From contig DATIHR010000022.1 of the NCBI GenBank assembly GCA_035480575.1, positions 750 to 64,749 of the forward strand: DNA of 64,000 bases, in the 5' to 3' direction. Source of the DNA: Candidatus Saccharimonadales bacterium. Its GTDB lineage: Bacteria; Patescibacteriota; Saccharimonadia; Saccharimonadales; UBA4665. Of the stretch, positions 16,230 through 58,474 are shown piece by piece (position 1 is the first letter of the stretch; each line of letters begins with the position of its first letter). The position numbers were made by a program, and so were the translations under genes. The notes below the pieces were generated by a model. The model did no database searches and was not told the DNA's origin. It worked only from the letters and a program-made list of their open reading frames with translations.

Positions 16230-16304
16230 CGCGGGGTGGAGCAGCGGCAGCTCGCGTGGCTCATAACCACGAGGTCAGAGGTTCGAGTCCTCTCCCCGCA
16301 ACCA
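16230..16304 (+). tRNA. Initiator tRNA-fMet (CAU)
   Basis: C1:A72 mismatch, CTCATAA loop, CCA encoded; TTGACG-17-TACTAT promoter upstream. Confidence 0.9.
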
Positions 16305-16337
16305 AACAAGGCACCCACTTTCGTGGGTGTTTTGTTT
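16305..16337 (+). terminator. Intrinsic terminator of tRNA-fMet
   Basis: GCACCCAC-TTTC-GTGGGTGT followed by a T-rich tract. Confidence 0.8.
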
Positions 16338-16473
16338 TGGTTTTGAGAGTCGGGCTCAAACCTGCGGTAGCATGTATCACAGACACAGCCTGATATAGTT
16401 AAGCTAATGGCCAATAAAGTGAAAGCCCCGCTTGGTGCAAGTCTTGTAGTATTGTCGTCAATTTTAATATTTT

Positions 16474-17427
16474 TTATCCAAATGTGAATGCGTAGGCCTC
16501 GGCGCCGGGTTCGGCAAATGTGATTGTTAGTGTCGCATCTTGTACTACACCTTGCTGGCGAATAAGTTGGTATAACCGGCCGTACTGCAGCAGGCCTGCT
16601 CCATGCTCGTCGATATCTGCCCCGTGGGCTCTGCCTGGCGCCTTATCGTTCAGGAGCACGCGGAAGGGTATGGGTTTGTGGCTGCCTGGCGACAGCACCA
16701 AGTGCGCATCGCGGGCATGGAAGCGGAAGGCAATACTGCCTCCGGGGCTGGCAAGTACTGCTCGTTCGGCGTCTATGGTCCATGTGCCAGTACATGCCCA
16801 ATGGTTGCGGGCAAGTTGAGCGGGCGCTGTGTAGGTAAGGGGTTGATCTATGAGCGCATTCTCGGGCGAGGCAAAGTTTTGGCCGCGCGCGTACCCCAGG
16901 TATGTCTCGGGCGTGCGCAGGCTGGGCCAATCGGCCTCGGCTTCAATGTTTGCCCCAGTAACGACTACTGGTTTACGTTCCACACCTAATAATTGTTGAA
17001 TAACATGCTCTGATTCCTCGTAGCGTCCCTCGCCGAAGTGTTCGTCGCGAATCACTCCGTTTTTGTTTACAAAGTAGAGCGCGGGCCAGTAGTGGTTAGC
17101 GAACGCGTTCCAAATTGCGTAGTTGCTGTCGACCGCGACGGGGTAGTGAATACCCCGGTCTTTTATTGCTTGCTGCACAGCGGCAACATCTTGTTCAAAC
17201 GAAAATTCTGGCGTGTGCACACCAATAACAACCAGACTATCCTTTTTGTAGGTGTCCGCCCAAGCACGAACGTATGGCTCGGTACGCAGCCAGTTAATAC
17301 ATGTAAGGGTCCAAAAGTTTACCACTACCGCGCTGCCGCGCAATGCATCTACTGTAAGTGGCTTGGTGTTCAGCCATGCAGTTGCTCCGTCCAGCGGGGG
17401 CATATGCAGGCGCTCCGATAGGGCCAT
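16474..17427 (-). CDS. DipZ-like redoxin (thioredoxin fold plus C-terminal beta-sandwich), without a CcdA membrane domain
   Basis: NFWTLTCINWLRT, GVHTPEF, YWPALY, HFGEGRY and TPETYLG motifs. Confidence 0.85.
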   Translation of the reverse strand: MALSERLHMPPLDGATAWLNTKPLTVDALRGSAVVVNFWTLTCINWLRTEPYVRAWADTYKKDSLVVIGVHTPEFSFEQDVAAVQQAIKDRGIHYPVAVDSNYAIWNAFANHYWPALYFVNKNGVIRDEHFGEGRYEESEHVIQQLLGVERKPVVVTGANIEAEADWPSLRTPETYLGYARGQNFASPENALIDQPLTYTAPAQLARNHWACTGTWTIDAERAVLASPGGSIAFRFHARDAHLVLSPGSHKPIPFRVLLNDKAPGRAHGADIDEHGAGLLQYGRLYQLIRQQGVVQDATLTITFAEPGAEAYAFTFG

Positions 17428-17495
17428 GTATTTATTTTATACCTCTTGTGCTAGTCGGCATTGAGCAACAACACCCCTATGTATAATCATTAATT

Positions 17496-18224
17496 ATGAG
17501 TAATGCTATCAAGTACAAGCAGACTTTCGATTTTTTAAGTGCGCCTTTTTTGCCGACCAGTCCCGAGCCGGCGGTTGCATATGGTAGGAGCGACCGGCTG
17601 GTGGCTGTTGCTTTGGGTGATTTAATTGCTGATTCTTTGGTGAGTAAGGCGGTTATTACCGGCGGTGTCGGCAAGGATACGCAAGCTTTACTTACGCAAG
17701 GATACCGCTCTGAAGCTCAATTTTTGAACGCGCAATTGTGGGAGGATTCTTGGGAGCGCGGCTACAAACTGCCCGATGTCTGGCTTGACGAAAAAGCCTT
17801 GCATAGGGGCGAAAATGCACGCAACTCGGTTAAGAGACTTGGCAGATTGTCATCCACGACCGCCGTCGCCCACGCAACCCAATGCCGCAGCCTGGCTGCA
17901 AGCCTTGAGTTTGCGATTGCACAGAAGACTGGTATGCGACCAACAATACACAGGAAGCCGACAGCCTATACATTTAACCCAGAAAATCCTAGCGACCAGG
18001 CCGAGGCAGCACGGGAGCTGTTGATTTTAGCGGATTGGTCAGCAAAGGGCTGGCTGCTCTCGCAGCCTTTCCTGCCCGAAGACCTCATTGATTTTGCCCG
18101 CGACGTACATGGTACCGCGCCAGAACCGGTGTCCTCATTAAAGACAGCAGTATTACATGCCTTACCCAGGCGTTTGCGGCTGCGTGCTATTCAGGCTGCT
18201 GCCAAAGCGCCGGTAGCCAGATAG
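17496..18224 (+). CDS. Divergent YdcF/DUF218-like protein
   Basis: ITGGVG, SEAQ and LDEKALHRGENARNS resemble DUF218 motifs. Confidence 0.55.
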   Translation: MSNAIKYKQTFDFLSAPFLPTSPEPAVAYGRSDRLVAVALGDLIADSLVSKAVITGGVGKDTQALLTQGYRSEAQFLNAQLWEDSWERGYKLPDVWLDEKALHRGENARNSVKRLGRLSSTTAVAHATQCRSLAASLEFAIAQKTGMRPTIHRKPTAYTFNPENPSDQAEAARELLILADWSAKGWLLSQPFLPEDLIDFARDVHGTAPEPVSSLKTAVLHALPRRLRLRAIQAAAKAPVAR

Positions 18225-18268
18225 TACGCCGGCCTTTTGTTTTGGGGAAGGCACGGTACAATAAAGGC

Positions 18269-18682
18269 ATGATTATTACGATTTCCACCCAGGGCCGGCG
18301 CCAGGTCGTAGACCTTACTAAAATGCTTACCGAGCAAGCACGCGGTAAGGACGGCCTTATGAGTTTGTTTGTGTTGCATAGCAGCGCTGCCATTACCACC
18401 GCCAACCTCGACCCAGGTACCGACCTGGACCTGCTTGATGCGCTTGCAGGCATAACGCCGCAATTGCAGTGGCGGCACCCACACAACCCTGCGCATGCGC
18501 CCGACCATTTACTGGCTTCTATTGTTGGCCCTGGTTTAGTGGTGCCGGTTAGCCAGGGCACGGTACGGCTGGGCGAATGGCAGCATATTGTGCTGATCGA
18601 TTTTAACGGCCCCCGGGAATGTGCCGTAGAGGTTACTTTTATAGAGAATTTAAAACGCGACGAGCCGGCATTTCAATTGTAA
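18269..18682 (+). CDS. yjbQ: YjbQ/UPF0047 family protein
   Basis: HSSAAIT, HxHNPAHAPDH and LGEWQHIVLIDFNGPR. Confidence 0.9.
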   Translation: MIITISTQGRRQVVDLTKMLTEQARGKDGLMSLFVLHSSAAITTANLDPGTDLDLLDALAGITPQLQWRHPHNPAHAPDHLLASIVGPGLVVPVSQGTVRLGEWQHIVLIDFNGPRECAVEVTFIENLKRDEPAFQL

Positions 18683-18775
18683 AAACTGTGGATAAACAGA
18701 GGTGTTCGTAAAAGATTCTGCTTGTAAGTTTAGACCATATCGTTACACTAAATAACAAGTGGCGAAAAACACTAA

Positions 18776-18823
18776 TTGACAAAACATAAAAAATATGTAT
18801 AATAATTAGTGTTGTGATCACAA
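18776..18823 (+). promoter_or_regulatory. Sigma70 promoter with a downstream palindromic operator
   Basis: TTGACA(18776)-16-TATAAT(18798); perfect palindrome TTGTGATCACAA at 18812-18823. Confidence 0.7.
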
Positions 18824-18865
18824 ACAAAAACATTCACAAAAAATAAAAATAAAAAAGGTTATGAC

Positions 18866-18961
18866 ATGACAGTCAAAACTAAAAGTGGGCTAAGCTTTGA
18901 GTTCGCAAAAACAAGCGATAAAAAGATACTTGCCCTGGACAGCTTGCTTAGCAAAGTATAG
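18866..18961 (+). CDS. 31-aa small ORF (MTVKTKSGLSFEFAKTSDKKILALDSLLSKV)
   Basis: Only ORF between a consensus promoter and a terminator; AAGG upstream. Confidence 0.45.
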   Translation: MTVKTKSGLSFEFAKTSDKKILALDSLLSKV

Positions 18962-18980
18962 GCAAGTTACCAAAACACCA

Positions 18981-19016
18981 AAGAAAAAGGCCCTACAAAA
19001 CCAGGGCCTTTTTCTT
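18981..19016. terminator. Bidirectional intrinsic terminator
   Basis: 14-bp perfect stem AAGAAAAAGGCCCT/AGGGCCTTTTTCTT between convergent genes. Confidence 0.85.
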
Positions 19017-19031
19017 TTGGTCTTGGATGAC

Positions 19032-19304
19032 TTATTTGCGGTTCGTTGGAACGGCGCGAGCAGACAGTTTGGTAATAACCAGGCTATACAGGAGCGCCCA
19101 AGTAATAGCGTTTACTAAAAAGATACCTAAGCCAATAAAGCAAATGCGTAAAATGGTTCGGCTTGCGTCGTAGTTTAGTAGGCCAACTAGGCCGGCAATG
19201 ATAACGCCACATACACTGACAACAATGTACGTGTGCTGCAGCTTATCGCGCTCGGTGTGCCGACTGTTCCACTTGACAAGCATCGTCTTCAGGGTGCTAA
19301 TCAT
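19032..19304 (-). CDS. Small two-TM membrane protein, apparently leaderless
   Basis: 90 aa; TTGACA-17-TATAAT ends 6 nt before the ATG. Confidence 0.7.
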   Translation of the reverse strand: MISTLKTMLVKWNSRHTERDKLQHTYIVVSVCGVIIAGLVGLLNYDASRTILRICFIGLGIFLVNAITWALLYSLVITKLSARAVPTNRK

Positions 19305-19411
19305 GTGTATATTATAACCTCTTAGCTTTTATATGTCAATTAGTGGCAAATGTTACAGCGTTCAACGTTGTACAGTGCGTATGCTAAAGGAGCCAGGAGG
19401 GTAGGCACAAT

Positions 19412-19519
19412 ATGAGTAAGTTTAGGTACAATATGACGCCAAAAGAGCGCCGCATTGCAGCGTACAAGCACAGCAAATTACACGGTAAGCATGGCGGTTC
19501 TGCACGCTACGCTATGTAG
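19412..19519 (+). CDS. 35-aa basic small protein (MSKFRYNMTPKERRIAAYKHSKLHGKHGGSARYAM)
   Basis: GGAGG upstream; fills the gap exactly and stops 3 nt from the convergent APH stop. Confidence 0.45.
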   Translation: MSKFRYNMTPKERRIAAYKHSKLHGKHGGSARYAM

Positions 19520-19522
19520 ACA

Positions 19523-20446
19523 TTACCAAAGTAGTGCGAGCGTTTTATCGGTAACAGCTTTTAGACCGTCCCAGTTTTGTTGAAAGGCATTCCAGCCTTG
19601 GGCATCAAGCCCGATATGCAGTTTGTAGCACAGCATGCGCTCTTTGAAGTTGTTGACCTGCAGGCCTGTAGCTTCGTAATGGGCGGCCGCTTGTTCGTCC
19701 CAGTTAATGTCTTTCATAGCGTGATACCAGGGCGACCAAAAGGAGAGCCAAGCGAGGTCGTACAAAAAATCGCCGCGCATGGAGTTGCCCCAGTCCAGGA
19801 CGCCAGCAATATGGCCGTCCTCGACAAGCACGTTTTTGTAGAGCAAGTCGCTGTGTATAAGGTGCGGTTCTTCGGGGCAAAAGTGCACGAGTTTTTGCAG
19901 TTGGTCGAGCGCCTGGTTAAAGCCATTCAGGCCAACGGGCGAGGCGGCAAGTTTGTCTTTCCAGCCGTGCATGCGGCTATCTATGTTGTCATTGCCGGCG
20001 TCGGCAATATGTTCTTGCCACGAGCTATATGGCCCTATGCCTTTGCCGTTCCACCGGCCGTAGCCGCTCAGTTCCGCTGTACTGGCATTGCGCAGCCCAT
20101 CCAGCATCTCGAGTACGGCTGGTACGGTGCGCTGCATGTCGGCTTGGTTAAGGCTGTCTAGTATGTGCCCTTGTATGTATTCGGATATGGCAAAATAGCC
20201 ATCCAACGCTTCGCCAACTTCCAGAATGCGCGGGATGGGTAGTTTTTCGCCGGCAAAGCTGGCAGCAAGCTCGTCCTTTAAAAAGTCTTCCTCGCGCTGG
20301 CTAAACCGTATAACGTGCTGGACACCGGAATACATGTAGCAAAAGGCTTGCGACGATGCGCCCCCGTTAATAATGGTTACTTCGTTTACGGCAGGACCAA
20401 TGTGTTCGGTTAAGAATGCAGTTACTTGGTCTATGCTCAGGGCCAT
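19523..20446 (-). CDS. Aminoglycoside phosphotransferase family kinase (APH(4)/hygromycin-kinase-like)
   Basis: HSDLLYKNVLV and GVLDWG motifs; AAGGAG Shine-Dalgarno before the ATG at 20446. Confidence 0.85.
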   Translation of the reverse strand: MALSIDQVTAFLTEHIGPAVNEVTIINGGASSQAFCYMYSGVQHVIRFSQREEDFLKDELAASFAGEKLPIPRILEVGEALDGYFAISEYIQGHILDSLNQADMQRTVPAVLEMLDGLRNASTAELSGYGRWNGKGIGPYSSWQEHIADAGNDNIDSRMHGWKDKLAASPVGLNGFNQALDQLQKLVHFCPEEPHLIHSDLLYKNVLVEDGHIAGVLDWGNSMRGDFLYDLAWLSFWSPWYHAMKDINWDEQAAAHYEATGLQVNNFKERMLCYKLHIGLDAQGWNAFQQNWDGLKAVTDKTLALLW

Positions 20447-20476
20447 GGCGTACTCCTTTCCCCCATTGTATATCAA

Positions 20477-20638
20477 AGAACCCATTTCAAATCTCCCCCC
20501 AGCTACAAAACCACCTGACGGTGCCATATTTCAGTTTTGTTCGTCACCGTAACTACAGTTACGCTTCCTCGCAAGAACTAAAATCTGGCACTCGCCAGCT
20601 GCTTTTTCGCTATCGCGGGGAGATCTGAAATGGGTTCT
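20477..20638. repeat. 162-bp rod-like imperfect palindrome
   Basis: 22-bp terminal inverted repeats (21/22), inner inverted repeat 20521-20537/20575-20591 (14/17) and apical CGTAAC-TACA-GTTACG. Confidence 0.85.
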
Positions 20639-20714
20639 AGGTAAAATACTTCACTGCCAAAGTGCCTGCTTGTTTCTATAGTGCAATGAGCTTACTAATG
20701 TAAGGGGGTGCGCC

Positions 20715-20873
20715 ATGGGTTTTCTAGATGATCTTAAGAGTGATATGAGTGACGAATCGCGCGAGCGCTACGAAGAGCTAAAGCACCGCGAAGCCGCGGG
20801 CGACCTGGACGACCAAGCGCGGGCCGAACTGAACCAGCTTCGTGAGCGGTTCGAATATAGCGAGAGCAGCTAG
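20715..20873 (+). CDS. 52-aa acidic helical small protein (MGFLDDLKSDMSDESRERYEEL...)
   Basis: AAGGGGGT upstream; amphipathic, protein-like composition. Confidence 0.6.
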   Translation: MGFLDDLKSDMSDESRERYEELKHREAAGDLDDQARAELNQLRERFEYSESS

Positions 20874-20912
20874 CCAACAGGTTAAAAATCTGCTATATTT
20901 ACCCTGTTATAC

Positions 20913-20989
20913 GGCAGGGTAGCTCAGCTGGTTAGAGCACAGGACTCATAAGCCTGGGGTCGCGAGTTCAAGTCTCGCCCCTGCTACCA
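20913..20989 (+). tRNA. Elongator tRNA-Met (CAU)
   Basis: GGCAGGG acceptor stem, CTCATAA loop, CCA encoded; A31.G39 mismatch. Confidence 0.85.
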
Positions 20990-21022
20990 AGTAAATGCCC
21001 CACCGCAGGTGGGGTTTTTACT
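20990..21022 (+). terminator. Intrinsic terminator of tRNA-Met
   Basis: CCCCACC-GCA-GGTGGGG followed by TTTTT. Confidence 0.85.
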
Positions 21023-21065
21023 TGGTCAGAGGCCAGGTTAGTTTAATAAGTTATAGTATTTTATT

Positions 21066-45591: not shown

Positions 45592-45855
45592 TTAGTAATG
45601 AAACCGGCAGCCGATAACCTGGATTTCGGTATCGGTAACCGCATACACGAGCCTGTTCTTTTCGTCTACGCGTCTTGACCAAAATCCGGAATAGTTTTCC
45701 TTGAGGGGCTCCGGCTTGCCTATTCCATTAAATGGATCCCGCCCAGTATCGGCGATGAGCTTGTTGATTTTTTTAAGTGTCTTTTTATCTTGGTTGGCCC
45801 AGAATTGGTAATCATCCCACCCTTGGGGTGTAAACAATATATTTCGCTGTGCCAT
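45592..45855 (-). CDS. yoeB: Txe/YoeB toxin
   Basis: GIGKPEPLK, GFWSRRVDEKNRLVY and C-terminal RFHY. Confidence 0.95.
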   Translation of the reverse strand: MAQRNILFTPQGWDDYQFWANQDKKTLKKINKLIADTGRDPFNGIGKPEPLKENYSGFWSRRVDEKNRLVYAVTDTEIQVIGCRFHY

Positions 45856-45856
45856 C

Positions 45857-46111
45857 TTAGTTTTCTACAAGGTTGTGCTTTTCCAGTTCGCCTTTACGTA
45901 GTGCAGCGATGGAATGTTCTAGGTGTTTGCGGTTAGCGGGACTGCTGTTTAAATAATCGGTTTCTGCTTTGGAATTGTATTCATCCAGAGTCATGACCAC
46001 CACTGTTTGGCCGTCGTTGCGGGTAATAAGTAATACGTCTCGGTCCTCGATAACTTTATCGAAATAACCCTTAGTGTCTTTGCGAAATTTAGAAATAGAT
46101 GTGACGTTCAT
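45857..46111 (-). CDS. yefM: Phd/YefM antitoxin
   Basis: Phd fold; ETDYLNSSPANRKHL. Confidence 0.92.
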   Translation of the reverse strand: MNVTSISKFRKDTKGYFDKVIEDRDVLLITRNDGQTVVVMTLDEYNSKAETDYLNSSPANRKHLEHSIAALRKGELEKHNLVEN

Positions 46112-46150
46112 AGTACTTTATATAGTACTTTAGGGCGTACGTTGTGTCAA
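46111..46150 (-). promoter_or_regulatory. yefM-yoeB promoter and operator
   Basis: TTGACA-17-TACTAT; two TAAAGTACTA direct repeats 12 bp apart, each with a palindromic AGTACT core. Confidence 0.8.
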
Positions 46151-46360
46151 TGGTCGTAGAAGTGGAATAGTGGCCTTTGGCCTTTTCCGTTGTGGCGTGC
46201 TCGGTGCAGCAATTTAGCACTGATCGTAGACAAGCATTCTTACCTCGCTTTGCTCGGATAGCTCGCTCACGGCTAAAGCCTACCGCTTGGCCAAGCTAAG
46301 AAAACTCACCATGCCACTGGCATGGTTCGACCTACGGTTCGAATCCCACTGGCGCGACCA
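46151..46360. repeat. Palindrome-rich element ending in an inverted tRNA 3'-end copy
   Basis: GGTTCGAATCCCACTGGCGCGACCA at 46336-46360; imperfect complement at 46151-46169; internal small hairpins. Confidence 0.7.
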
Positions 46361-46395
46361 ATAAAAAAGCCCCAGCTTTGCTGAGGCGTTTTTAT
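46361..46395. terminator. Bidirectional-type terminator downstream of tRNA-Lys
   Basis: ATAAAAAAGCCCCAGC-TTT-GCTGAGGCGTTTTTAT. Confidence 0.8.
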
Positions 46396-46472
46396 TGGAG
46401 GGCCCAGTGGGATTCGAACCCACGACACGCGGCTTAAAAGGCCGCTGCTCTAACCTGCTGAGCTATGGGCCC
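46396..46472 (-). tRNA. tRNA-Lys (UUU)
   Basis: GGGCCCATAGCTCAGCAGGTTAGAGCAGCGGCCTTTTAAGCCGCGTGTCGTGGGTTCGAATCCCACTGGGCCCTCCA; TTGACT-17-GATAAT promoter. Confidence 0.95.
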
Positions 46473-46558
46473 ATTCTTGACGAAGCCAAAAATGGCGAGC
46501 AAATAACAGGGTACATTATCCTAAAAACAGAGGCAAAAGTCAATCCGTGTTGGTTTTT

Positions 46559-46945
46559 TTATGACTTCTTAATTTTCTCTAGCAGCCACGCAGTGGCGGC
46601 GTCGCGGTCTTCGAAATACCGTACTCGGTAACTTTGGCCGACTGCCCGTAGCATGAGGTTGGTGCCAAAGCGCATGATAAGGCCTTTGCCAAGCATGGCC
46701 GCGCGGTCGTAGTCCAGCCGTTTGGCTAGCTCCACAACTAGGTTGCGCCCGTCGGCACCAACGGCACCAAGCCCCAGCAGATTGTCTAATATAAGGGCGG
46801 GTTTGCCCGTTGCCCTTTGGCTGGTTATGAGTGCGTCGACCTCGCGGCCCATGAGTTCAATAGAGGTTGCGGTTTGCGGTCCGGAGGTTACGATTTCTAT
46901 AATTCCATCTTCGTTTAGGATTACTTTATTTTGCAGCATACCCAT
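46559..46945 (-). CDS. SpoIIAA/STAS-SEC14-like protein
   Basis: LILDNL..LG...RAAMLG...VRYFEDRDAATAWL. Confidence 0.7.
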   Translation of the reverse strand: MGMLQNKVILNEDGIIEIVTSGPQTATSIELMGREVDALITSQRATGKPALILDNLLGLGAVGADGRNLVVELAKRLDYDRAAMLGKGLIMRFGTNLMLRAVGQSYRVRYFEDRDAATAWLLEKIKKS

Positions 46946-47006
46946 ATAGTAAAAGTCATTGCAGTGGGTCGTCTAGTCGGAAACATTTTGGTATGATGGG
47001 CGATAT

Positions 47007-47339
47007 ATGGGTGGTGCCTCATACGACCTAGACTTTGTAACCAGCAGCCTTACCTGGGGCGAGGGGTTATACACAGAATTTGGGTATGACAAATCGGCCC
47101 CCACTAACAGCGTTGATTGGTGGACCGACCACATACATCCTAACGATGCCATGATATTAAATTATGCCATGGACAAGTTGCTTGATCCGTATGCGCAAAA
47201 CTGGCTTGTCGAGTACCGGTTTAGAAAAGCAGATAACAGCTATGTAGTAGTCGAAGACCAGGCAACGATACACCGCGATAGTGTCGGTAAGGCGATACGG
47301 CTAACGGGTACGCTGACACCACTTGCAACCTATTCGTGA
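47007..47339 (+). CDS. Stand-alone PAS_3 domain protein
   Basis: WWTDHIHPND, EYRFRKADNSYVVVEDQA and IRLTGT. Confidence 0.85.
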   Translation: MGGASYDLDFVTSSLTWGEGLYTEFGYDKSAPTNSVDWWTDHIHPNDAMILNYAMDKLLDPYAQNWLVEYRFRKADNSYVVVEDQATIHRDSVGKAIRLTGTLTPLATYS

Positions 47340-47387: not shown

Positions 47388-48821
47388 GTGCTGCAAAAAA
47401 TATATGCCAGGCGCCTAAAACGGGCGCCAATTGTTATCTCGGTTTGTTTGGCTCTATTTGCCGGTATTGGACTGGCTCGATATTACCCCGGCGTGTCTTT
47501 TGGTTGGCTTTGGCCTGTTGGCGTTTTGGTGGCGGTAACGCTGCGCAAGCACAATGTGGCTACGTTGCTTTGTTTAGCGCTGCTTGGCTTTGGTATTGGC
47601 TGGTGGCGGGGTTCGGTGGTTATGTACCGTATGGCGCCTTATAGCCAGCTGGCACTAACCAAGGTGACAGTCGTGGGTAGGGCAACGGACGATGCGGTGT
47701 ACGGCGAGCAATCGCAGTTGACATTTGGGTTAAGTGTCGTGCATGTAGTACAGCCAGTGCAGACTGCCTTGCCGGGGACACTTAAAGTATCCGGTTATGG
47801 GGTTGGTGGTGTATATCGGGGTGACAGAGTGGTGGTGTCCGGCAAGTTATACCCAACTCGTGGGAGTAACCAGGCGAGTATCAGTTTTGCCGAGCTAAAG
47901 ATTGTGGAGCGGGGGAGTTCTGGCATTGATGCGTTCCGGCGTAACTTTGCAGCGGGGTTGCAGTCGGCATTGCCCGAACCTTTGGCATCACTGGGCTTGG
48001 GCCTCCTTATTGGGCAGCGCAGCACGTTGCCGGCGGAAGTAACGAGCGTGCTGCTAACTGTTGGCCTAACGCACATAATTGCGGTGTCGGGATACAACCT
48101 GACGATTATTATCCAGGCAGTGCGGCGTCTTATGGGCAAGCGTTCTAAGTTTCAAACTATGGCGGTGTGCTTGCTATTAATGGGTACGTTTTTGTTGATT
48201 ACAGGCAGTAGCCCCTCAATTGTACGCGCTAGCATAATTAGCATGTTAAGTTTAGGTGTTTGGTATTACGGGCGGACCATTAAGCCATTGGTATTGCTGC
48301 TAACAGCAGGCGCGATAAGTGTGCTGCTAACGCCACTATACTTGTGGGGTAACGTTAGCTGGTATTTATCTTTTTTGGCATTTTTTGGTGTGCTGGTGTT
48401 AGCCCCATTGGTGACAAAGCGGCTGTATGGCAGGCGCACTCCAAAAATAATTGGGCAGATCGTTATAGAAAGCTCGTGTGCGCAAATAATGACCGTGCCC
48501 TACGTGCTGTATATATTTGGGCATATTTCATTTGTAGCATTGCCGGCAAATGTGTTGGTGGTGGCTGCTGTGCCGCTGGCAATGCTACTGTCCCTTATTG
48601 CAGGCCTCGCAGGTATGTTCATGCCAATTGTGGCCGGCTGGCTTGCTTGGCCGGCAGCCTGCGTACTGTTGTATATGCTGGATGTTTCCAGCTTACTTGC
48701 CGAGTTGCCATTTGCCGCTAGGAATAACACCTACAGTACTGCTACTGCCATGGCGTGTGCTTATGGCGTTATCGGGTTTGTGGCAGTGCTACTGTGGCGG
48801 CGGGCTGGGTCGGCCAGTTAG
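47388..48821 (+). CDS. comEC: ComEC/Rec2 DNA uptake channel (OB and competence domains, no beta-lactamase domain)
   Basis: GLTHIIAVSGYN, SIVRAS, LSFLAF and SLPANV-type motifs. Confidence 0.92.
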   Translation: MLQKIYARRLKRAPIVISVCLALFAGIGLARYYPGVSFGWLWPVGVLVAVTLRKHNVATLLCLALLGFGIGWWRGSVVMYRMAPYSQLALTKVTVVGRATDDAVYGEQSQLTFGLSVVHVVQPVQTALPGTLKVSGYGVGGVYRGDRVVVSGKLYPTRGSNQASISFAELKIVERGSSGIDAFRRNFAAGLQSALPEPLASLGLGLLIGQRSTLPAEVTSVLLTVGLTHIIAVSGYNLTIIIQAVRRLMGKRSKFQTMAVCLLLMGTFLLITGSSPSIVRASIISMLSLGVWYYGRTIKPLVLLLTAGAISVLLTPLYLWGNVSWYLSFLAFFGVLVLAPLVTKRLYGRRTPKIIGQIVIESSCAQIMTVPYVLYIFGHISFVALPANVLVVAAVPLAMLLSLIAGLAGMFMPIVAGWLAWPAACVLLYMLDVSSLLAELPFAARNNTYSTATAMACAYGVIGFVAVLLWRRAGSAS

Positions 48822-49436
48822 GTAGTCTATTTCGTCACCTTGTCGTGCCCGGCGAATGTAGCCAAACGTTAGCACGGTATCCGGCGGAATATGCTGGTTG
48901 GCTACTGCTTGTAGCGCGACTTCAAGGCTTGGAGGGCATTCGGTGTAAAATTTGAGCCAACCCACATGTATCTGAGGATGTTTATTCGATTTTGATTTAT
49001 TGCCGAGTCTTTTGACTGTTTCTTGGCTGACCTGACGCTCTTGGTGCATACTTGAGCGTGCAAGCTGCCCGCAGAATATTTTGCGATCTGGCTGGCCGCC
49101 CTGCAGTGAGTGGTTGAGACAGGCTGTCCCCACTTTTTTGCTGAACGATGGCAGTGAAGCAAGTTGTTCGTGTATACGATCTGCTATCTCGTCATAGCCC
49201 AGATATGTCAGCTCTGAGTCTGGCGCTGCATTCTGGACGGAGTGCTCGATAAAATTGCCACCAACGATTGGTATGGAAATTTTGTTAGGATCCATAAAGC
49301 GTACCGTGTTGTCGCTAATGGGCATATATTTGGTGACGGTATGCATAAGGGCTACGCTGAGTGCACTAATTACCTCTGGCTTGGGCAATGAAAGGTCTCG
49401 TTTAAAAACAACAATGTCCGGCGAGTGGTTAGGCAT
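48789..49436 (-). CDS. Tandem paralogue C, unknown function
   Basis: Shares IVGGN, PDSxL, PDR, QLA, HIPP and RQG with the next two; start inferred from the shared upstream motif. Confidence 0.65.
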   Translation of the reverse strand: MPNHSPDIVVFKRDLSLPKPEVISALSVALMHTVTKYMPISDNTVRFMDPNKISIPIVGGNFIEHSVQNAAPDSELTYLGYDEIADRIHEQLASLPSFSKKVGTACLNHSLQGGQPDRKIFCGQLARSSMHQERQVSQETVKRLGNKSKSNKHPQIHVGWLKFYTECPPSLEVALQAVANQHIPPDTVLTFGYIRRARQGDEIDYLTGRPSPPPQ

Positions 49437-49487
49437 GCAGCCGAATATAGCATACATTGCCGCTACTGGCTATACGGGGCCTCAGTC

Positions 49488-50120
49488 TTAAAGTCTCAGA
49501 TACTTATCTTGTTCGCTACCTTGCCGTATGCGTTTGACGGGGTCAAATATGAGTTGGCTGTTCGGCGGAATATGTTCGTTCGTTACCTTTATTAAATCCT
49601 CTTCCAATGATTTGGGGCATTGCGTAAGGAACTTTATCCAACGCAAGGCGTGCCGTCGAGAGTATGGAGGTGGCGTTAGGACACCCCCGAGTGCCGTCAA
49701 CGCTGCCTTGCCTAGATGGCGCTCTTCTAGGATGCTGGACTCGGCCAATTGTGTGCCGTACATTTTACGATCGGGTTTTCTGCCTTGTAGCTTATGAGCC
49801 AAAACAGAAATAGTTGTTGGGTCGGCGTACATGGGCGTGGCTGATATTTCTTCTTCTATGGCATCGGCTATTTGATCGTACGTAAGATGTACGAGTTCTG
49901 AATCGGGGTGGGCGGTCCTCATGGCATATGCTATGGCATTACCGCCAACTATACTTATGGCGCACTTTGCCGGATGGCTAAAACGCACCGAGTTTTTGTC
50001 GATAGGCATGTACTGCCCCACGACCCCAATAAGGTTGGCTTGGAGTTCACCAATAACCTGTGGCTCGGGCCAAACAAGCGGCCGCTTAAAGGTAATAATG
50101 TCAGGCGACAGTTCGGGCAT
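49488..50120 (-). CDS. Tandem paralogue B, unknown function
   Basis: Same motifs as paralogue C; ATG follows TATATTCGGCTGC. Confidence 0.65.
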   Translation of the reverse strand: MPELSPDIITFKRPLVWPEPQVIGELQANLIGVVGQYMPIDKNSVRFSHPAKCAISIVGGNAIAYAMRTAHPDSELVHLTYDQIADAIEEEISATPMYADPTTISVLAHKLQGRKPDRKMYGTQLAESSILEERHLGKAALTALGGVLTPPPYSRRHALRWIKFLTQCPKSLEEDLIKVTNEHIPPNSQLIFDPVKRIRQGSEQDKYLRL

Positions 50121-50161
50121 GCAGCCGAATATACCACATACCGCCACTACAGGGCTATACG

Positions 50162-50796
50162 TTACGTTATTTCTAAGTACCGATTTTTTTCGTCGCCCTG
50201 CCTCATTGATCTAACGCGGTCAAATACCATTGGCGTCCCTGGTGGAATGTGATCATTAGTGACTGTTATTAATTCGTTCACTAGAGGTTCGGGGCAGTCA
50301 ACTGCAAACTGTATCCAGGATACGGCATGCCAGGGAACGCGCCTACGTGGCAATGGAATATTGCCAAGCATTCTGAGTGCTGCTTGGCCTATAAAGCGCT
50401 CGTCTAGTATGGGCGATTCAGCTAGCTGTGTGCCGAACACTCTGCGGTCGGGCCGTCCGCCTACCATGCTGTGGGCAAAAGCGTGCGTAGCTAGTGGTTT
50501 GGTGTAGGTGGGAAGGATTGACACCTTTTCTTCTATGGCATCGGCGATCTGGTGCGGGGTTATGTTTGCGAGTGCCGAATCGGGGTCTGCGGTTTTAACG
50601 GCATGTTCAATGACATTGCCGCCTACAATACTTATGGCACAGTTGTTCGGGTTGCTAAAGAGTGCCGAATTCGAATGTATCGACATATAGCCTTTGACAA
50701 CTTGGATAAGGTCGGCCTGAAGCCTGCCGACCACGTCGGCTTCAGGCGAGAGGAGCTGACGTTAAAGACGACAAGATTAGGAGACAGATCGGACAT
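50162..50796 (-). pseudogene. Tandem paralogue A with an apparent 1-nt deletion near 50762
   Basis: The ATG at 50796 gives MSDLSPNLVVF, homologous to MPELSPDIITF; homology then continues in another frame (RQLLSPEADVVGRLQ). Span is 635 nt. Confidence 0.6.
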
Positions 50797-53349: not shown

Positions 53350-53823
53350 ATGGCAGCAACATCGGAAACATTATGGAAGCCCCACATCGATAATCTTACT
53401 TCTAGTATTGAACGTAGGAGAATCGCACATGACGTTGCCATGGGCGCCGCTACTACGATAATTAAAGACCTCGTGCGTACAGGTTCATTGCCAGACTTTG
53501 CCGTGTTACAACAGTATCTAGACGAAGAAGAAAAAATAATGCAGCTAACTGCCGTACCGTTCCGGACGGAACAATGGAAGCCGCCAAACGTCATTGAATG
53601 CCGGGATATCGTAACTAGTGAACCACGAGGGCATTGGTTGAATATAACAATAGGCAACGATACGTCGAACCGTGGTTTGTGGTTAGCGGCCGCCCGTTGG
53701 GAAAGAGAACGCAACCTAGACTTGTTAAGGACGGATACGGGTTATCCGGTATTGCCCTGTGGCACTGGATACAGGGAGCATGATGTCAGTGTTTCCGATG
53801 CGCTACCAATACCTCGCCGCTAA
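53350..53823 (+). CDS. Hypothetical protein
   Basis: 157-aa ORF between ruvA and ruvB. Confidence 0.55.
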   Translation: MAATSETLWKPHIDNLTSSIERRRIAHDVAMGAATTIIKDLVRTGSLPDFAVLQQYLDEEEKIMQLTAVPFRTEQWKPPNVIECRDIVTSEPRGHWLNITIGNDTSNRGLWLAAARWERERNLDLLRTDTGYPVLPCGTGYREHDVSVSDALPIPRR

Positions 53824-53859
53824 GGTACTTTCTGCGAGGGTGATAAGATAGGTATACAT

Positions 53860-54894
53860 ATGGCAGTGGAGCGGATAGTTACTACGAGTGTTTCTGGTGA
53901 TGACCAGCAAGAGCAAGAGCTGGAGAATACACTGCGCCCCAAGGACTTCGCGAGTTACATTGGCCAGGGGCGCATTAAGCGTAATCTGCGGCTTGCCATA
54001 GAGGCCGCCAAAAAGCGTGGGGAATCGTTGGATCATGTGCTGTTGTACGGCCCGCCGGGCCTGGGCAAGACGACGCTTGCGAGTGTGATTGCTAACGAAA
54101 TGGGTGCCCACATATGCATTACGTCTGGGCCGGCCATCGAGCGGGCGGGCGACTTGGCTAGTTTACTGACCAACCTCGAAGACGGCGACGTATTGTTTAT
54201 CGATGAAATTCACCGCTTGAACCCAACGGTCGAAGAAAAGTTATATTCGGCCATGGAGGATTTTGCCCTTGATATTGTCATTGGTAAGGGGCCGAGCGCT
54301 CGCGCCCTACGGCTGGATGTGCCGAAGTTTACGCTTATAGGCGCAACCACTCGGGCGGGCAGTTTGGCGGCGCCCCTAAGGGACCGGTTTGGCATGATAC
54401 ACCGGCTGGAGTTTTACACGCCCGAAGAGATCCGCCAGATCATCGAGCGCGCGGCCGGCATTTTGCGTGTCACGATCCACCCCGAGGCGGCAGGCGAGCT
54501 GTCGCATAGGTCGCGCCTTACACCGCGTATAGCCAACCGACTCTTAAAACGGGTGCGCGATTATGCCGATGTAAACGGTGACGGTATTATTGACACGTCC
54601 ATTAGCCGCCAAGCGCTGGACCTGCTAGAAGTAGACGCACTGGGCCTTGACCCGGCCGATCGCATGCTGCTGGCAGCGATTATTGAAAACTACAATGGTG
54701 GTCCGGTAGGCATAGAAACCATCGCCGCCCTTACGGCCGAAGAGCGGAGCACTATAGAAGATTTTTACGAACCGTATTTAATGCAAATCGGGCTGCTGGA
54801 GCGAACCCCGCGCGGCCGCAAGGTAACGCCAAAAACGTACAAACATCTCGGCAAGCCGGCTCCTAGGGATGCAGACCAATCAAAACTGCTATAA
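53860..54894 (+). CDS. ruvB: Holliday junction helicase RuvB
   Basis: [17 protein letters not shown] and [10 protein letters not shown]. Confidence 0.98.
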
Positions 54895-54903
54895 TGCAGT
54901 GAT

Positions 54904-55758
54904 ATGGACTACAATACACCAGACGCAGGCGCTGATAATTTCGGCCGTCCGCAGCCACCATACCAGTTCCCACCGCACCCTGGCCAGCCAAGCAAGGCTC
55001 CCCAGTATGGCGCCCAGCAACAGCACCCGCAGAATCCGTATCAGCCAGTTGCATACGACAACCAAGGCCGTCCTTTGTACGCTCACCCGTCGAATCAACC
55101 GCAAATGATGTACTTTGCCCGGCCCCTCGACGCCAAGCCACAGCCCTTAAGTGAGTACATACAGCGTCGCCATGCAGAATCAGTCAAGAACTTCCCTTCC
55201 CTTAATTTAAGTAATGGCGAGTACATTATTAGTGCCGTCAGTCGCCACCCCATTGGTATTCTGCGCATTTGGGCGGCTGCTTTTTTGGTTATTTTGGCGC
55301 TTATTGGTTTGTTCTCGGTATTATTTACACAAAATACTGGATCTTCGGTGGACACAGCATTTGGTACCGATGTCAGCTCTTTTAACGCCATAGGCATTGG
55401 TGTTATTGCCATTATGATGATTTTAGCCGCTATAGGCGCGCTCATTGGCACCTACGTGTACAATAACAACCGGTTTTATCTAACTAACGAAAGCGTTATC
55501 CAGGAAATACAAAATTCGTTATTTTCCAAGCACGAGCAAACAGTTAGCCTGGCAAACATAGAAGACGCTAGTTTTGAGCAGAGTGGCATTATCCCGACAT
55601 TGCTTAATTATGGACGTATCCGGCTTAGTACCGAGGGCGACGAGACGACATATCGTTTTAACTATGTTGCCGACCCTAAAAAGCACATCGCTGTTCTTAA
55701 TAATGCGGTCGAGGCGTTTAAGAACGGCCGGCCAGTAGACCCCAACGAGGAGGATTGA
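54904..55758 (+). CDS. Membrane protein with a bacterial PH (bPH_2) domain
   Basis: P/Q-rich N-terminus, 2 TMs, FYLTNES...NYGRIRLST. Confidence 0.8.
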   Translation: MDYNTPDAGADNFGRPQPPYQFPPHPGQPSKAPQYGAQQQHPQNPYQPVAYDNQGRPLYAHPSNQPQMMYFARPLDAKPQPLSEYIQRRHAESVKNFPSLNLSNGEYIISAVSRHPIGILRIWAAAFLVILALIGLFSVLFTQNTGSSVDTAFGTDVSSFNAIGIGVIAIMMILAAIGALIGTYVYNNNRFYLTNESVIQEIQNSLFSKHEQTVSLANIEDASFEQSGIIPTLLNYGRIRLSTEGDETTYRFNYVADPKKHIAVLNNAVEAFKNGRPVDPNEED

Positions 55759-55795
55759 CCCCAGGCCCACGTCTTACCGTAGGGGCAAAAAGGCG

Positions 55796-56341
55796 TTAGT
55801 TTATGATGCGTACAAAGGGTGCGTATCTGTTGCGGTGGCCTTTGGGTAGGACAAGTCTGTGCTGCACGGTTTGTGCGCCTGCCCGCATAATTTCTAGGCC
55901 GGTAGCCATGGCTGCTGGAAAATCTTCACTGGGGTCCTCTGGAAAGTTTGTCGGCCTGTTATTGTTGCGCTGGTGGCTGGCTGGAATGTATGGTTGTTCG
56001 GCAGAAGCTCGACGGAAGGTAAATGTATCGTACACCGGGTTCCTGCCTAATGAGCTCTGACTAATTTTTAGTTCGCCGGCGGAAACGCGAAGGTCGCCGC
56101 ATATGGCATGGATCGTTGCGCTGCCAGCGGCTTGCTGTAGATCGTCCGGGCCAAAGATAACGCCTATTGCCAGGTTGCCGGCGTGTAGTTTGGCCTGTAT
56201 GTCCGGATAGATTTTTGTCTCGATGGCAGCGGCAACAACTGTGTTTGCCCATGTCTCTGGGGCATGCGCTAGGCGTTCGCGGCCTGAGCGGGTGGGAATA
56301 TGTAAATTGATATGTTTTTGCGAAAAGTCAAAATCAGCCAT
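55796..56341 (-). CDS. Hypothetical protein
   Basis: 181-aa ORF; TGCTATAGT extended -10 just upstream. Confidence 0.6.
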   Translation of the reverse strand: MADFDFSQKHINLHIPTRSGRERLAHAPETWANTVVAAAIETKIYPDIQAKLHAGNLAIGVIFGPDDLQQAAGSATIHAICGDLRVSAGELKISQSSLGRNPVYDTFTFRRASAEQPYIPASHQRNNNRPTNFPEDPSEDFPAAMATGLEIMRAGAQTVQHRLVLPKGHRNRYAPFVRIIN

Positions 56342-56386
56342 AAGAACTGACTATAGCATCCTTTCGTTGCGAGTGTAACCTGTTGG

Positions 56387-56437
56387 TTAGTTTAGGCTGG
56401 AGCGGGTGTATTTTTCGCCGCCCTCAATCATGACGAC
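56387..56437 (-). repeat. Second copy of the pilin gene 3' end (att-like direct repeat)
   Basis: 49/51 identical to 57995-58045; the first 41 bp are identical. Confidence 0.95.
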
Positions 56438-56516
56438 TTGTACCGCTCCCTCCGTTCCTCGCGAAAATACGCACGCAGCACCCTAGGCACCCGCTTATTG
56501 CAGGCGCAAACCCTGC

Positions 56517-56543
56517 GTCATTCCGGACTTGATCCGGAATCCA
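56517..56543. repeat. REP-like hairpin GTCATTCCGGACTTGATCCGGAATCCA
   Basis: Perfect 8-bp stem ATTCCGGA/TCCGGAAT preceded by GTC. Confidence 0.7.
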
Positions 56544-56554
56544 GGACTAGCCCT

Positions 56555-57286
56555 CTAGTTTGATGAGTTGCCTAAATAACTCTGACCCAAGAAGAACTTA
56601 CCCTTTTCTGTTAAGCCAATTCTTTCGCCCTCTACCTGTACCAGATCGTTTGTGTGCGCCACTGCAATCCCGTCTTTAGGGAGGTCAATACCGACGCGCC
56701 TTCCGAGATCTTTGTCATAGTAAGTGGTAACCCTGCCGCCGTGTTTATAGACCGATTCGGCAATTTCGCCCAAAAAATGGACTAATCCGTTTTTAGCAAA
56801 GGCATTGTATTCTTTTTGCCACACGATCCTCGGGTCCTGTTTGGCGGCTTGTTGTTCCTTTTTTGCCGTGTTAATCTCTGCTTCAAGCGTTCTTTGCGCC
56901 TGGAGCGCTAGGCGCTCCTTTTTGATTTCAATTTTCTCTTCTTCCTCAATCTTTACACGACGTTTATCAACCTTATGCCTTTGTTCTTGCCGATAGGCAT
57001 GTATAAGAACATATTTTGGGACAGGCCATATAAATACGATGGTCAATAACAGTGGCAAAAGATATGCGGGTACTGATGACCAGCCGTGCCAACCAAAAAA
57101 GTATGTGTTTACGTACTCGTTTTTTAAGAGACCGAACTTATCATAGATTTTGTCCTCGCCAGTAAAAAGCGTAGTATAGATGCCTTGCCAATGAAAGGCT
57201 GCCCAAAAGAAAAAATAGGTACCCAACGCGGCCGAGACTACTCTTTTCCGAATCGCTTCTGCTATAGAATCTGTTAGCTCACTCAC
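56555..57286 (-). CDS. Island cargo 2: two TMs, coiled coil and C-terminal winged-helix-like region
   Basis: 243 aa; ends IGLTEKGKFFL; starts 6 nt after cargo 1. Confidence 0.7.
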   Translation of the reverse strand: MSELTDSIAEAIRKRVVSAALGTYFFFWAAFHWQGIYTTLFTGEDKIYDKFGLLKNEYVNTYFFGWHGWSSVPAYLLPLLLTIVFIWPVPKYVLIHAYRQEQRHKVDKRRVKIEEEEKIEIKKERLALQAQRTLEAEINTAKKEQQAAKQDPRIVWQKEYNAFAKNGLVHFLGEIAESVYKHGGRVTTYYDKDLGRRVGIDLPKDGIAVAHTNDLVQVEGERIGLTEKGKFFLGQSYLGNSSN

Positions 57287-57292
57287 TCTTAA

Positions 57293-57846
57293 CTACTGTC
57301 CACCCATGAATTTTTTTAGAACTTCAGATAACACAGATCCTGATACTGTAGCGAATGTTGGATTGGCAAGGATATCCTTTAAACTGTCCAAGATTCCATG
57401 TTTATCCGTACCCTCGGGCATAGCCTCAACTTCCTTAAGTAGGCCGGCCATGAACTCGCCAACCGTAATTTGGCAATGGAGCTGTTATCACCAAATGTGG
57501 CGTCGCCGTGGACGGTAACTTGACTAAATTTTGATTGTAGAGTGGCGCGGGCTTCGGCTTGTTTCTGATTTATTAAAGCATCCTGTGCCCGGGCGTCTTC
57601 TGGCATGCGTTCATTCAGGACAACTAAGAGTTCATTGACGGCATCGATTGCGTCGTCGTTATAGTTAGGTCCATCCATTATTACAATGCCCGACTCTAGC
57701 GCACGTTCAAGTATAGACATATTACCATCTCCGTAGGGTTTCACGGCTGCCCTTACATCGTTGGCCCACACGGCAAATTTTGCTGACCCCATTTTGGTGC
57801 CTCGAAGCTCGTTACCTTCTTTTATTAGTGCCTCGAATTCTGACAC
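57293..57846 (-). pseudogene. Island cargo 1, about 184 aa, with an apparent 1-nt frameshift at 57467-57484
   Basis: A protein-like tail QITVGEFMAGLLKEVEAMP...LKKFMGGQ lies in another frame and stops at 57293; span is 554 nt. Confidence 0.65.
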
Positions 57847-57917
57847 TTGACCCTCTTTTCTCCCACATCGCGGTTTTTATTCCTTGGTGCTATCCCCGCA
57901 CAGCAGTATTTAGCCAG

Positions 57918-57946
57918 ATTGTATTATTAGGAAACTATATTGTCAA
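57918..57946 (-). promoter_or_regulatory. Sigma70 promoter of the island cargo
   Basis: TTGACA-17-TACAAT on the minus strand. Confidence 0.75.
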
Positions 57947-57994
57947 TGAAAAAATAATATGCTTATTTTAACCGGTTTAACGATAGTAATTGAA

Positions 57995-58474
57995 TTAGTT
58001 TAGGCTGGAGCGGGTGTATTTTTCGCCGCCCTCAAGCATGGCGACGAGAGTGTAATGTGCGCAGGGGTTCTTTTTGTTGTCACAGGCCGAGCCGTCGGTG
58101 CCGGTCACTTGGTAACTGTAGCATTCGTTGGTGGCTTTGACGGCAAAGCTGGCTTGGTCTTTTTCTTTGCAGGCGGTATTGGCAATTTTCCAGCTTGGGT
58201 CTTGTATAGCATCGTCCTTAAGTCGTTTAAGGTTCGTGCTACGCCAGTTGTTGCTTGCTAGGTTGGCAAATGTGGGGTAGGTATTAGTCTGCGCGTAGTA
58301 TGCCTCTAGTTGGCCTTTTATGGTGTCTATATCTGCTTTGCGCTCGGCATTACGGTTTTTAGCCTGTACGCCGCTGTACGTAAAGGCAATCAGGCTGGCT
58401 AAAATGAACAGTACAATAAGCACCACAAGTAGTTCGATAATGGTAAAACCGGAGGATTTGTGAGGAATTTTCAT
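57995..58474 (-). CDS. Type IV pilin/GspG-like pilin
   Basis: G/FTIIELLVVLIVL; RNAERKADI...LEAYY...YP. Confidence 0.92.
   Translation of the reverse strand: MKIPHKSSGFTIIELLVVLIVLFILASLIAFTYSGVQAKNRNAERKADIDTIKGQLEAYYAQTNTYPTFANLASNNWRSTNLKRLKDDAIQDPSWKIANTACKEKDQASFAVKATNECYSYQVTGTDGSACDNKKNPCAHYTLVAMLEGGEKYTRSSLN

Follow-up and report, generated by a model that had tools for sequence, protein, structure and literature searches.

Do hairpins that resemble the ends of neighbouring genes mark one system for the capture of small gene cassettes? The question is raised by 64,000 nucleotides (nt) of Candidatus Saccharimonadales bacterium (assembly GCA_035480575.1, contig DATIHR010000022.1, positions 750 to 64,749), the whole of which is hereafter called the window. 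An initial annotation had linked four of its loci: tRNA-fMet, a tRNA-Met beside an APH-family kinase gene, tRNA-Lys beside yefM-yoeB, and a type IV pilin gene followed by two cargo genes. Their hairpins were proposed to mimic the adjacent gene ends and to mark a single system relying on a recombinase acting in trans or on the uptake of single-stranded DNA. In such a model they would be recombination sites comparable to folded attC sites or to the attP hairpin of the CTX phage. Our analysis indicates that there is probably no single system but three separate things: terminators behind tRNA genes, a hotspot of gene flux at tRNA-Lys and one insertion at the end of the pilin gene.

The window was compared with a set of relatives obtained by a RuvC search, consisting of 80 Saccharimonadales species with 10-kb flanks each (labelled L0xx). 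In these relatives, the backbone is conserved in the order RimK, DUF192, g45053, tRNA-Lys with variable DNA, ComEC, YebC, RuvC, RuvA, RuvB, g54904, pilin, PilB, RecA and RecX. Furthermore, Logan contigs of soil metagenomes, which are assembled from 31-letter words (runs X2, X3 and X5), match the window DNA, that of a soil Saccharibacteria genome. ARAGORN identified four tRNA genes in the window, three tRNA-Met and one tRNA-Lys, and an Rfam search of the window gave nothing beyond these four genes. The coordinates of all features are given in Table 1.

Hairpins behind the tRNA genes

A census of the whole window (at least 13 pairs, at most two mismatches, five shuffled controls) returned five long hairpins, compared with none in the five shuffles. 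Three of them are located directly 3' of tRNA genes (16304-16337, 20986-21026 and 46358-46398), a fourth (18978-19019) comes after a 31-codon open reading frame (ORF) that has a perfect consensus promoter, and the fifth lies within a gene. In the tRNA-adjacent hairpins, the G+C core is bordered by an A-rich tract towards the gene and by its T-rich complement away from it, and a T run is present as well. All three are called by a terminator scan on one or both strands, as is the hairpin at 18978-19019. Hence, the hairpins behind tRNA-fMet, tRNA-Met and tRNA-Lys are predicted to be Rho-independent terminators working in both directions.

According to the predicted trailer folds, the encoded CCA forms the start of the stem in tRNA-Met and tRNA-Lys, and the tRNA-fMet stem starts from A76. 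The tRNA-Met hairpin has 19-nt arms that are 89% complementary, with CCA paired. At tRNA-fMet and tRNA-Met, the distal arm complements just the last four to five bases of the tRNA (ACCA) and the A-rich spacer, and the resemblance to the gene end is trivial at these two loci. Since the non-tRNA terminator at 18978-19019 closes likewise (CCAAAG...CTTTTGG), such a closure reflects the way in which terminators are built in this genome.

Among relatives, predicted folds place a trailing hairpin behind 49 of 55 tRNA genes, with CCA fully paired in 20 of the 55. About 13-15 of these 20 stems, as read from the folds, continue directly from CCA:TGG, which corresponds to roughly one quarter of the tRNA genes. 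The A/T extensions of the stems vary among species yet stay complementary (ACTAAAA/TTTTAGT, TACAAAA/TTTTGTA, CGAAAAAA/TTTTTTCG), and the core of the window tRNA-Lys terminator hairpin is also found in L010, L041, L057 and L072. A terminator design starting at CCA is, judging from these folds, a trait of this lineage. Polymerase template switching at quasi-palindromes, a process documented to create and expand hairpin arms (PMC8794818, PMC13100816), may lengthen the stems and keep them perfect. As the tRNA arm would be fixed by selection, the free downstream arm would come to resemble the tRNA end.

The idea that hairpins mark a capture system is not borne out at these genes, where they are predicted terminators found in relatives whatever the cargo. 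Variable regions next to stems with and without CCA do not differ significantly in size (medians 3.3 and 2.9 kb, Mann-Whitney p=0.93). Moreover, no attachment (att)-type repeat of the 3' end of tRNA-fMet or of either tRNA-Met was found anywhere in the window. A metagenome scan with TilS for tRNA-Met loci gave one locus only, L093, so that variability around tRNA-fMet and tRNA-Met is documented by L093 and L033.

Two perfect consensus promoters converge between tRNA-fMet and tRNA-Met (18776-18803 on the plus strand and 19339-19311 on the minus strand). They would drive the 31-codon ORF (18866-18961) and an ORF encoding a membrane protein of 90 amino acids (aa; 19032-19304), which share a long bidirectional terminator (18964-19033).

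Possible footprints of integration behind tRNA-Lys

Of the three tRNA hairpins, only that of tRNA-Lys is, from its sequence, a true case of gene-end mimicry. It belongs to an inverted repeat with 41-nt arms (46336-46376 / 46380-46420) that are 85% complementary and give a DNA fold z-score of -8.5. The first arm begins with a tRNA-like 3' fragment whose T arm is 17/17 identical to that of tRNA-Lys, while its acceptor part differs. The mimicry claimed for four loci thus holds for this 17-nt exact T arm and shrinks to ACCA at tRNA-fMet and tRNA-Met.

Similar copies occur elsewhere in the lineage. A significant inverted copy of the tRNA's own T arm is present just past the terminator at 4 of 54 tRNA loci, and L093 carries a further one (18/18 identical) at tRNA-Met. 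In the window, L031, L072, L082 and L093, these copies follow each species' own tRNA variant. In addition, L031, L041, L057, L061 and L082 each repeat their own tRNA-Lys 3' end exactly and in direct orientation over 16-22 nt, starting from the T loop, at a distance of 106-250 nt downstream (up to ~430 nt in L061). The window tRNA-Lys has only the inverted 17-nt copy and a degenerate direct copy. In several relatives, on the tRNA strand, the tRNA 3' third is interrupted in the T loop by an insert of 50-170 nt. The yoeB, yefM, tRNA-Lys and SpoIIAA-like gene block (45592-47339) is inverted relative to most relatives, and tRNA-Lys is opposite to the backbone strand in about 12 of 40 relatives.

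A recurrent order was observed behind tRNA-Lys (tRNA-Met in L093): terminator, inverted T-arm copy, small palindrome and split direct copy of the 3' third. It was found at L041 6570-6790, L061 3559-4010, L082 1783-1929, L093 1823-2000 and L023 3880-4130. A second terminator sometimes ends the order, and the second terminator of L041 is the first terminator of L082.

The tRNA-Lys repeats may be the decayed footprints of islands that integrated in the T loop and rebuilt the tRNA end, and yefM-yoeB and the neighbouring element X, described below, would be leftovers of such island traffic. These footprints fit known T-loop-targeted islands combined with homologous exchange in a naturally competent group (PMC10633639).

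Serine recombinases at tRNA ends

Outside the range covered by the initial annotation, the window encodes a large XisF/Ccr-like serine recombinase. The last 22 nt of its gene overlap the 3' end of the tRNA-Met gene at 8485-8560, where an island (205-8560) ends. Besides the recombinase, this island holds a PA14/RHS protein of 1527 aa (205-4788) with a C-terminal DUF4258 domain, which is followed by a DUF2283 gene (4790-5020). Since no repeat of the 3' end of this tRNA-Met was found in the window, the far end of the island lies beyond position 1. L022 displays the same arrangement: a serine recombinase gene (387-2086; 26% identity to that of the window) converges on the terminator and 3' end of tRNA-Lys. 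Near the four loci themselves, no recombinase gene was detected among the ~50 ORFs scanned around them, and the recombinase of the island is the only one found.

Element X and the origin of the tRNA-Lys palindrome

The stretch of 250 nt that separates the yefM promoter from the terminator of tRNA-Lys is not a random spacer. It includes element X, a sporadic non-coding module with a conserved 44-nt block (46160-46203) and a hairpin (46308-46326). The block is also present in L023 and L061, where it is convergent to tRNA-Lys, and in L092, where two tandem copies, with no tRNA nearby, have as neighbours Fic, NYN and methylase genes and an ORF-B homologue (ORF-B being one of the two pilin cargo genes). 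In total, it was found in 4 of 86 sources. Such a sporadic spread would favour a mobile-element remnant over a housekeeping RNA.

In L092, a direct repeat of 45 nt (80%; 3605-3649 and 4848-4892) flanks a single NYN-domain gene upstream of the ORF-B homologue. The same region holds Fic, DUF1508 and DNA methylase genes and the two tandem X copies.

Known RNAs were considered for both the tRNA-like fragment and element X. Transfer-messenger RNA (tmRNA), RNase P RNA, signal recognition particle RNA and other known RNAs were rejected, the Rfam searches (gathering and E-value thresholds) being empty. For tmRNA, ARAGORN gave noise only, at relaxed thresholds, and the acceptor, as read from the sequence, has no G3:U70.

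It is possible, although we find it rather doubtful, that the palindrome and element X do not derive from template switching but are attachment-site or convergent-tRNA remnants of serine-recombinase elements that target T loops and carry tRNA 3' ends from earlier targets. The acceptor part of the fragment (TGGCGCG-A-CCA) is indeed unlike tRNA-Lys, as if it came from another tRNA. The T-loop splits of tRNA 3' thirds in relatives, the scattered and locally tandem X block and the precedent of Dehalococcoides point in the same direction. However, the inverted copies, which adjoin the terminator stem without a break, follow the T-arm variant of each species, and this fits copying in cis. No recombinase was found in the gaps concerned, among the top families or the 20 largest ORFs of ~30 relatives. 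Moreover, neither the fragment nor two X motifs have an exact match in IMG/VR viral contigs. Template switching in the terminator stem is the explanation that we favour.

A probable insertion at the end of the pilin gene

At the pilin locus, a hairpin had been reported to mimic the gene end. This hairpin is weak (z=-2.4), marginally better than shuffles, and the real feature is a direct repeat of 51 nt (96% identical, blastn E=4e-21) that covers the last 16 codons and the stop codon. Paralogous genes apart, the window has no repeat of at least 28 nt other than this one and the palindrome at tRNA-Lys. The two copies enclose a low-GC segment of 1.56 kb that carries its own promoter (57946-57918) and the cargo pair, ORF-A and ORF-B. 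We propose that this foreign DNA entered the pilin gene within its last 51 nt and left the pilin end intact. It could have arrived as a circular molecule with a copy of the conserved pilin end, by a single crossover that would be either site-specific in trans or RecA-mediated. The pilin C-terminus is unusually conserved across the lineage (..YTLTAxLEGGEKYVKSSLN), which makes its DNA a plausible recombination anchor. The left repeat copy has two substitutions, both at family-conserved residues (A to V, L to I), and therefore fits a displaced, unselected remnant.

Alternatively, a second pilin gene in tandem might have lost its 5' part by deletion, leaving the left copy, whose reading frame runs to a stop codon and whose translation resembles a pilin C-terminus. 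This is very unlikely, since each of the 17 relatives examined has only one pilin gene at the locus, the similarity ends exactly at 51 nt with nothing pilin-like upstream, and the DNA between the copies is of low GC and has its own promoter.

The cargo pair had been described as defence-like. Neither ORF matches Pfam, PADLOC (E<=0.1) or NCBIfam, and the sole match of the pair is that of the ORF-B N-terminus to phrog_4780, whose function is unknown; a defence role thus finds no support in these searches. In soil run X2, an extra T at 57468 joins a further frame to ORF-A and gives an intact protein of 183 aa (end at ~57297), so that ORF-A of the window is either frameshifted or an assembly variant. 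ORF-A, ORF-B and the neighbouring g181 are absent from all 80 relatives. Homologues of ORF-B (n=41) come mostly from Saccharibacteria and are solitary, in unrelated contexts; in L089-L091, one is located directly behind tRNA-Lys and its terminator. ORF-B was rejected as part of a defined mobile cassette, since homology is confined to the coding region, without flanking repeats.

The insert also contains a hairpin that resembles a repetitive extragenic palindrome (REP). Its depth in soil runs is ~20x that of the flanks, 1.3 Mb of related Saccharimonadales loci do not contain it and a stretch of 31 nt (97%) matches a Sphingopyxis plasmid. Judged by these matches, it looks like a repeat of unrelated bacteria.

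The gap between pilin and g54904 is 8-111 nt in many relatives and 0.3-6 kb in others. The pilin repeat has no exact match in IMG/VR. Logan contigs stop inside its 42-nt identical core, and run X5 is almost without coverage. A contig of low depth from run X3 links the end of g54904 (55742) directly to the pilin 3' end (58016), without g181 or the insert. This joint was rejected as an excision product: it belongs to a divergent co-occurring strain with the ancestral g54904-pilin arrangement.

Could element X act as an RNA?

Element X might also be a functional small RNA that is convergent to the tRNA and has a T-arm-like 3' end, acting in a guide- or bridge-like way or as a tRNA regulator. The conserved 44-nt block does have a covarying hairpin (GGCC/GGCC, GGGC/GCCC, GCAC/GUGC, GGAC/GUCC), and the depth of 46236-46367 in soil runs (at least 85% identity) is 3-6x that of the flanking genes. 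Moreover, two segments of the element, both antisense to the neighbouring tRNA in its 3' third, match each species' own tRNA. We nevertheless regard such an RNA as very unlikely. The distribution is sporadic, neither Rfam nor ARAGORN gives a match, no promoter is called on the plus strand, and the window X has a 5' segment that does not correspond to tRNA-Lys. Scars of duplication at the DNA level would account for this sequence just as well. In a search of 1.33 Mb, a covariance model of the X block retrieved no copies beyond the five on which it was trained.

An extended version of this proposal, which we consider highly improbable, would make the X family small RNAs convergent to tRNA genes, guide- or bridge-like (or else DNA sites), that steer a trans recombinase to T loops, the pilin-end insertion being a separate use of the same logic. 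If true, X would be a programmable version of the capture route that the initial annotation had in mind.

Gene turnover and cargo

The tRNA-Lys flank is the most variable backbone junction and a hotspot of gene flux. The junction between g45053 and g47388 exceeds 1 kb in 11 of 12 relatives. The corresponding counts are 23/76 for YebC-RuvC, 5/19 for g54904-pilin, 8/51 for ComEC-YebC and 9/63 for RuvA-RuvB. Unusual variability, expected at the loci, is thus found at tRNA-Lys, whereas that of the pilin flank is unexceptional compared with junctions without tRNA or pilin ends. The tRNA-Lys gaps contain 79 Pfam families over 124 ORFs, including transporters, DNA repair proteins, HAD and NUDIX hydrolases and zeta-like kinases.

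Two junctions that vary among relatives hold tandem paralogues: three genes on the minus strand between ComEC and YebC (48789-50734) and two genes that share an exact 31-nt repeat (13087-14909).

The cargo was said to include resistance, toxin-antitoxin or defence-like genes. This is correct for yefM and yoeB, which score well above the Pfam cut-offs (57.7 bits for a cut-off of 29.8 and 135.6 bits for a cut-off of 27, respectively) and the TIGR02116 cut-off (114 bits for 51.8). Their GC content is 44%, against 51% for the window, and they have a promoter at 46150-46122. Tandem 12-nt repeats (ATAGTACTTTAT / ATAGTACTTTAG) at 46110-46133 overlap this promoter and the yefM start and are a probable YefM-YoeB operator. 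In L035 and L051, the pair likewise lies downstream of tRNA-Lys, and the relative order is unchanged.

The APH gene lies 5' of tRNA-Met and is divergent from it. Its NCBIfam scores (125.8 bits against APH(4)-Ia, cut-off 725; 28.8 bits against APH(3'), cut-off 205) are far below the resistance cut-offs, so that resistance is unproven and only an APH-family kinase can be assigned. The start codon and leader of this gene lie between the arms of a 22-nt inverted repeat (20477-20498 / 20617-20638; 95% complementary, 118 nt apart), which could be a regulatory structure.

Table 1. Positions of the features discussed in the text, given in window coordinates
Feature	Position	Strand	Remarks
Large serine recombinase gene	6929-8506	plus	525 aa; XisF/Ccr-like
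tRNA-Met	8485-8560	minus	ARAGORN
tRNA-fMet: tRNA-Met (CAU), initiator-like	16230-16304	plus	C1 opposite A72; CCA encoded; ARAGORN, Rfam, sequence
Predicted intrinsic bidirectional terminator of tRNA-fMet	16300-16341	plus	AACCAAACAA-GGCACCCAC-TTTC-GTGGGTG-TTTTGTTTTGGTT; stem extends into tRNA ACCA
APH-family kinase gene	19523-20527	minus	Pfam
tRNA-Met (CAU), elongator-type	20913-20989	plus	ARAGORN, Rfam
Predicted intrinsic terminator of tRNA-Met	20986-21026	plus	ACCAAGTAAA-tg-CCCCACC-GCA-GGTGGGG-t-TTTACTTGGT
yoeB, type II toxin	45592-45855	minus	Pfam, NCBIfam
yefM, type II antitoxin	45857-46111	minus	Pfam, NCBIfam
Element X, sporadic non-coding module	46150-46335	plus	Between yefM promoter and tRNA-like fragment
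Inverted tRNA-like 3' fragment	46336-46360	plus	GGTTCGAATCCCACTGG-CGCGA-CCA
Predicted terminator of tRNA-Lys	46358-46398	minus	CCAATAAAAA-c-GCCTCAGC-AAA-GCTGGGGC-t-TTTTTATTGG
tRNA-Lys (UUU)	46396-46472	minus	ARAGORN, Rfam
ORF g181	55796-56341	minus	181 aa; no assigned function; between g54904 and pilin remnant
Left repeat copy, probable displaced pilin 3'-end remnant	56387-56437	minus	Ends ..VVMIEGGEKYTRSSLN and stop
Inserted segment	56438-57994	minus	1,557 bp; GC 45.3% (window 51%)
REP-like hairpin	about 56497-56547		GTCATTCCGGACTTGATCCGGAATCCAGG; in pilin insert
ORF-B	56555-57286	minus	243 aa; membrane and coiled coil; in insert
ORF-A	57379-57846	minus	In insert; frameshifted in window
Type IV pilin gene	57995-58474	minus	Last 51 nt (57995-58045) are the right repeat copy

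One system or three?

A single hairpin-marked system deserves almost no credence. It could draw on the gene-end duplication that flanks inserted DNA at pilin and, in relatives, at tRNA-Lys, on the lack of recombinase genes beside these loci, on the known natural competence of the lineage (PMC10633639), with ComEC and RecA encoded near the loci in the window, and on the occurrence of ORF-B relatives both at the pilin end and behind tRNA-Lys; but its hairpins are predicted terminators that occur whatever the cargo, no loop, stem or spacing motif is common to the four loci, att-type repeats are lacking for tRNA-fMet and tRNA-Met, the pilin locus is characterised by a direct repeat and its hairpin is weak, and the pilin flank does not exceed junctions without tRNA or pilin ends in variability. 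What stands of the proposal is insertion at conserved gene 3' ends without an adjacent recombinase gene, seen at the tRNA-Lys flank and at the pilin repeat, and the view that these insertions are ordinary events of known kinds has support.

Several points nevertheless weigh against the three-part explanation that we favour. Termination, template switching, integration and excision are read here from sequence alone. The inverted copy at tRNA-Lys has five adjacent acceptor mismatches (CGCGA vs GCCCT) between two perfect stretches, a block that would not be expected if a template-switch copy had simply decayed. No integrase or recombinase was found in the tRNA-Lys gaps of ~30 relatives (top families; 20 ORFs of at least 281 aa), so that the footprints are without a local enzyme. 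The conservation of element X across genomes is not accounted for by this explanation. Finally, extra DNA follows the pilin 3' end in 22 relatives, none of which has a pilin-end repeat, and this makes the pilin insertion a single case whose mechanism cannot be generalised.

If the three-part explanation is right, an attractive but unsupported idea is removed, as a terminator stem abutting a conserved gene would suffice to produce a hairpin that looks like the gene end. Soil Saccharimonadales show very high gene turnover at many conserved-backbone junctions, tRNA-Lys being the main hotspot, and the window provides a clear example of a small insert, without an integrase, that would have rebuilt the 3' end of a type IV pilin gene. 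This bears on how ultra-small, naturally competent episymbionts acquire accessory genes.

Comparison with known systems

We know of no description of terminator stems that start at CCA and run into a T-arm copy. The hairpins behind the tRNA genes otherwise share with known Rho-independent bidirectional terminators (PMC8794818, PMC13100816) the stem-loop, T run, upstream A tract, place behind the gene and compensatory changes. They differ in that the stem often starts exactly at the encoded CCA and, at tRNA-Lys, continues into the T-arm copy.

The pilin insert can be compared with two kinds of elements. Like integron attC cassettes, the inserts discussed here are small, carry one or two genes without their own recombinase and have imperfect inverted repeats nearby. 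Unlike them, the pilin insert has its own promoter and lies between two direct copies of 51 nt from a host gene. Neither an integron integrase nor attI was found among the same ~50 ORFs around the loci, the only part of the window scanned, and no match to the GTTRRRY core was read by eye at the insert boundaries. The elements e14 and phage 21 integrate in the 3' end of E. coli icd and bring a replacement end. As with the pilin insert, they duplicate the gene 3' end without disrupting the gene, and the far end of the insert carries the displaced copy. The pilin insert differs from them in being only 1.56 kb long, in having no integrase and in its target, a type IV pilin gene.

For tRNA-Lys, the closest comparison is with the ssrA genomic islands of Dehalococcoides, which insert in the T loop, are delimited by a ~20-bp direct repeat of the RNA gene 3' end and leave tandem accreted remnants (PMC3146451). 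More generally, integrative and mobilizable elements targeting tRNA or tmRNA genes include cis-mobilizable ones (PMC5704250). The ssrA islands resemble what is found here in the serine recombinase gene of ~525-540 residues that reaches the attachment site and in the highly variable downstream cargo. In contrast, the window tRNA-Lys has only an inverted copy and a degenerate direct copy, its remnants are 100-250 nt long, and no recombinase was found in the tRNA-Lys gaps of the ~30 relatives (top families and 20 largest ORFs). Footprints and recombinase genes together are consistent with T-loop-targeted serine-recombinase islands in a candidate-phyla-radiation lineage, in parallel with those of Dehalococcoides.

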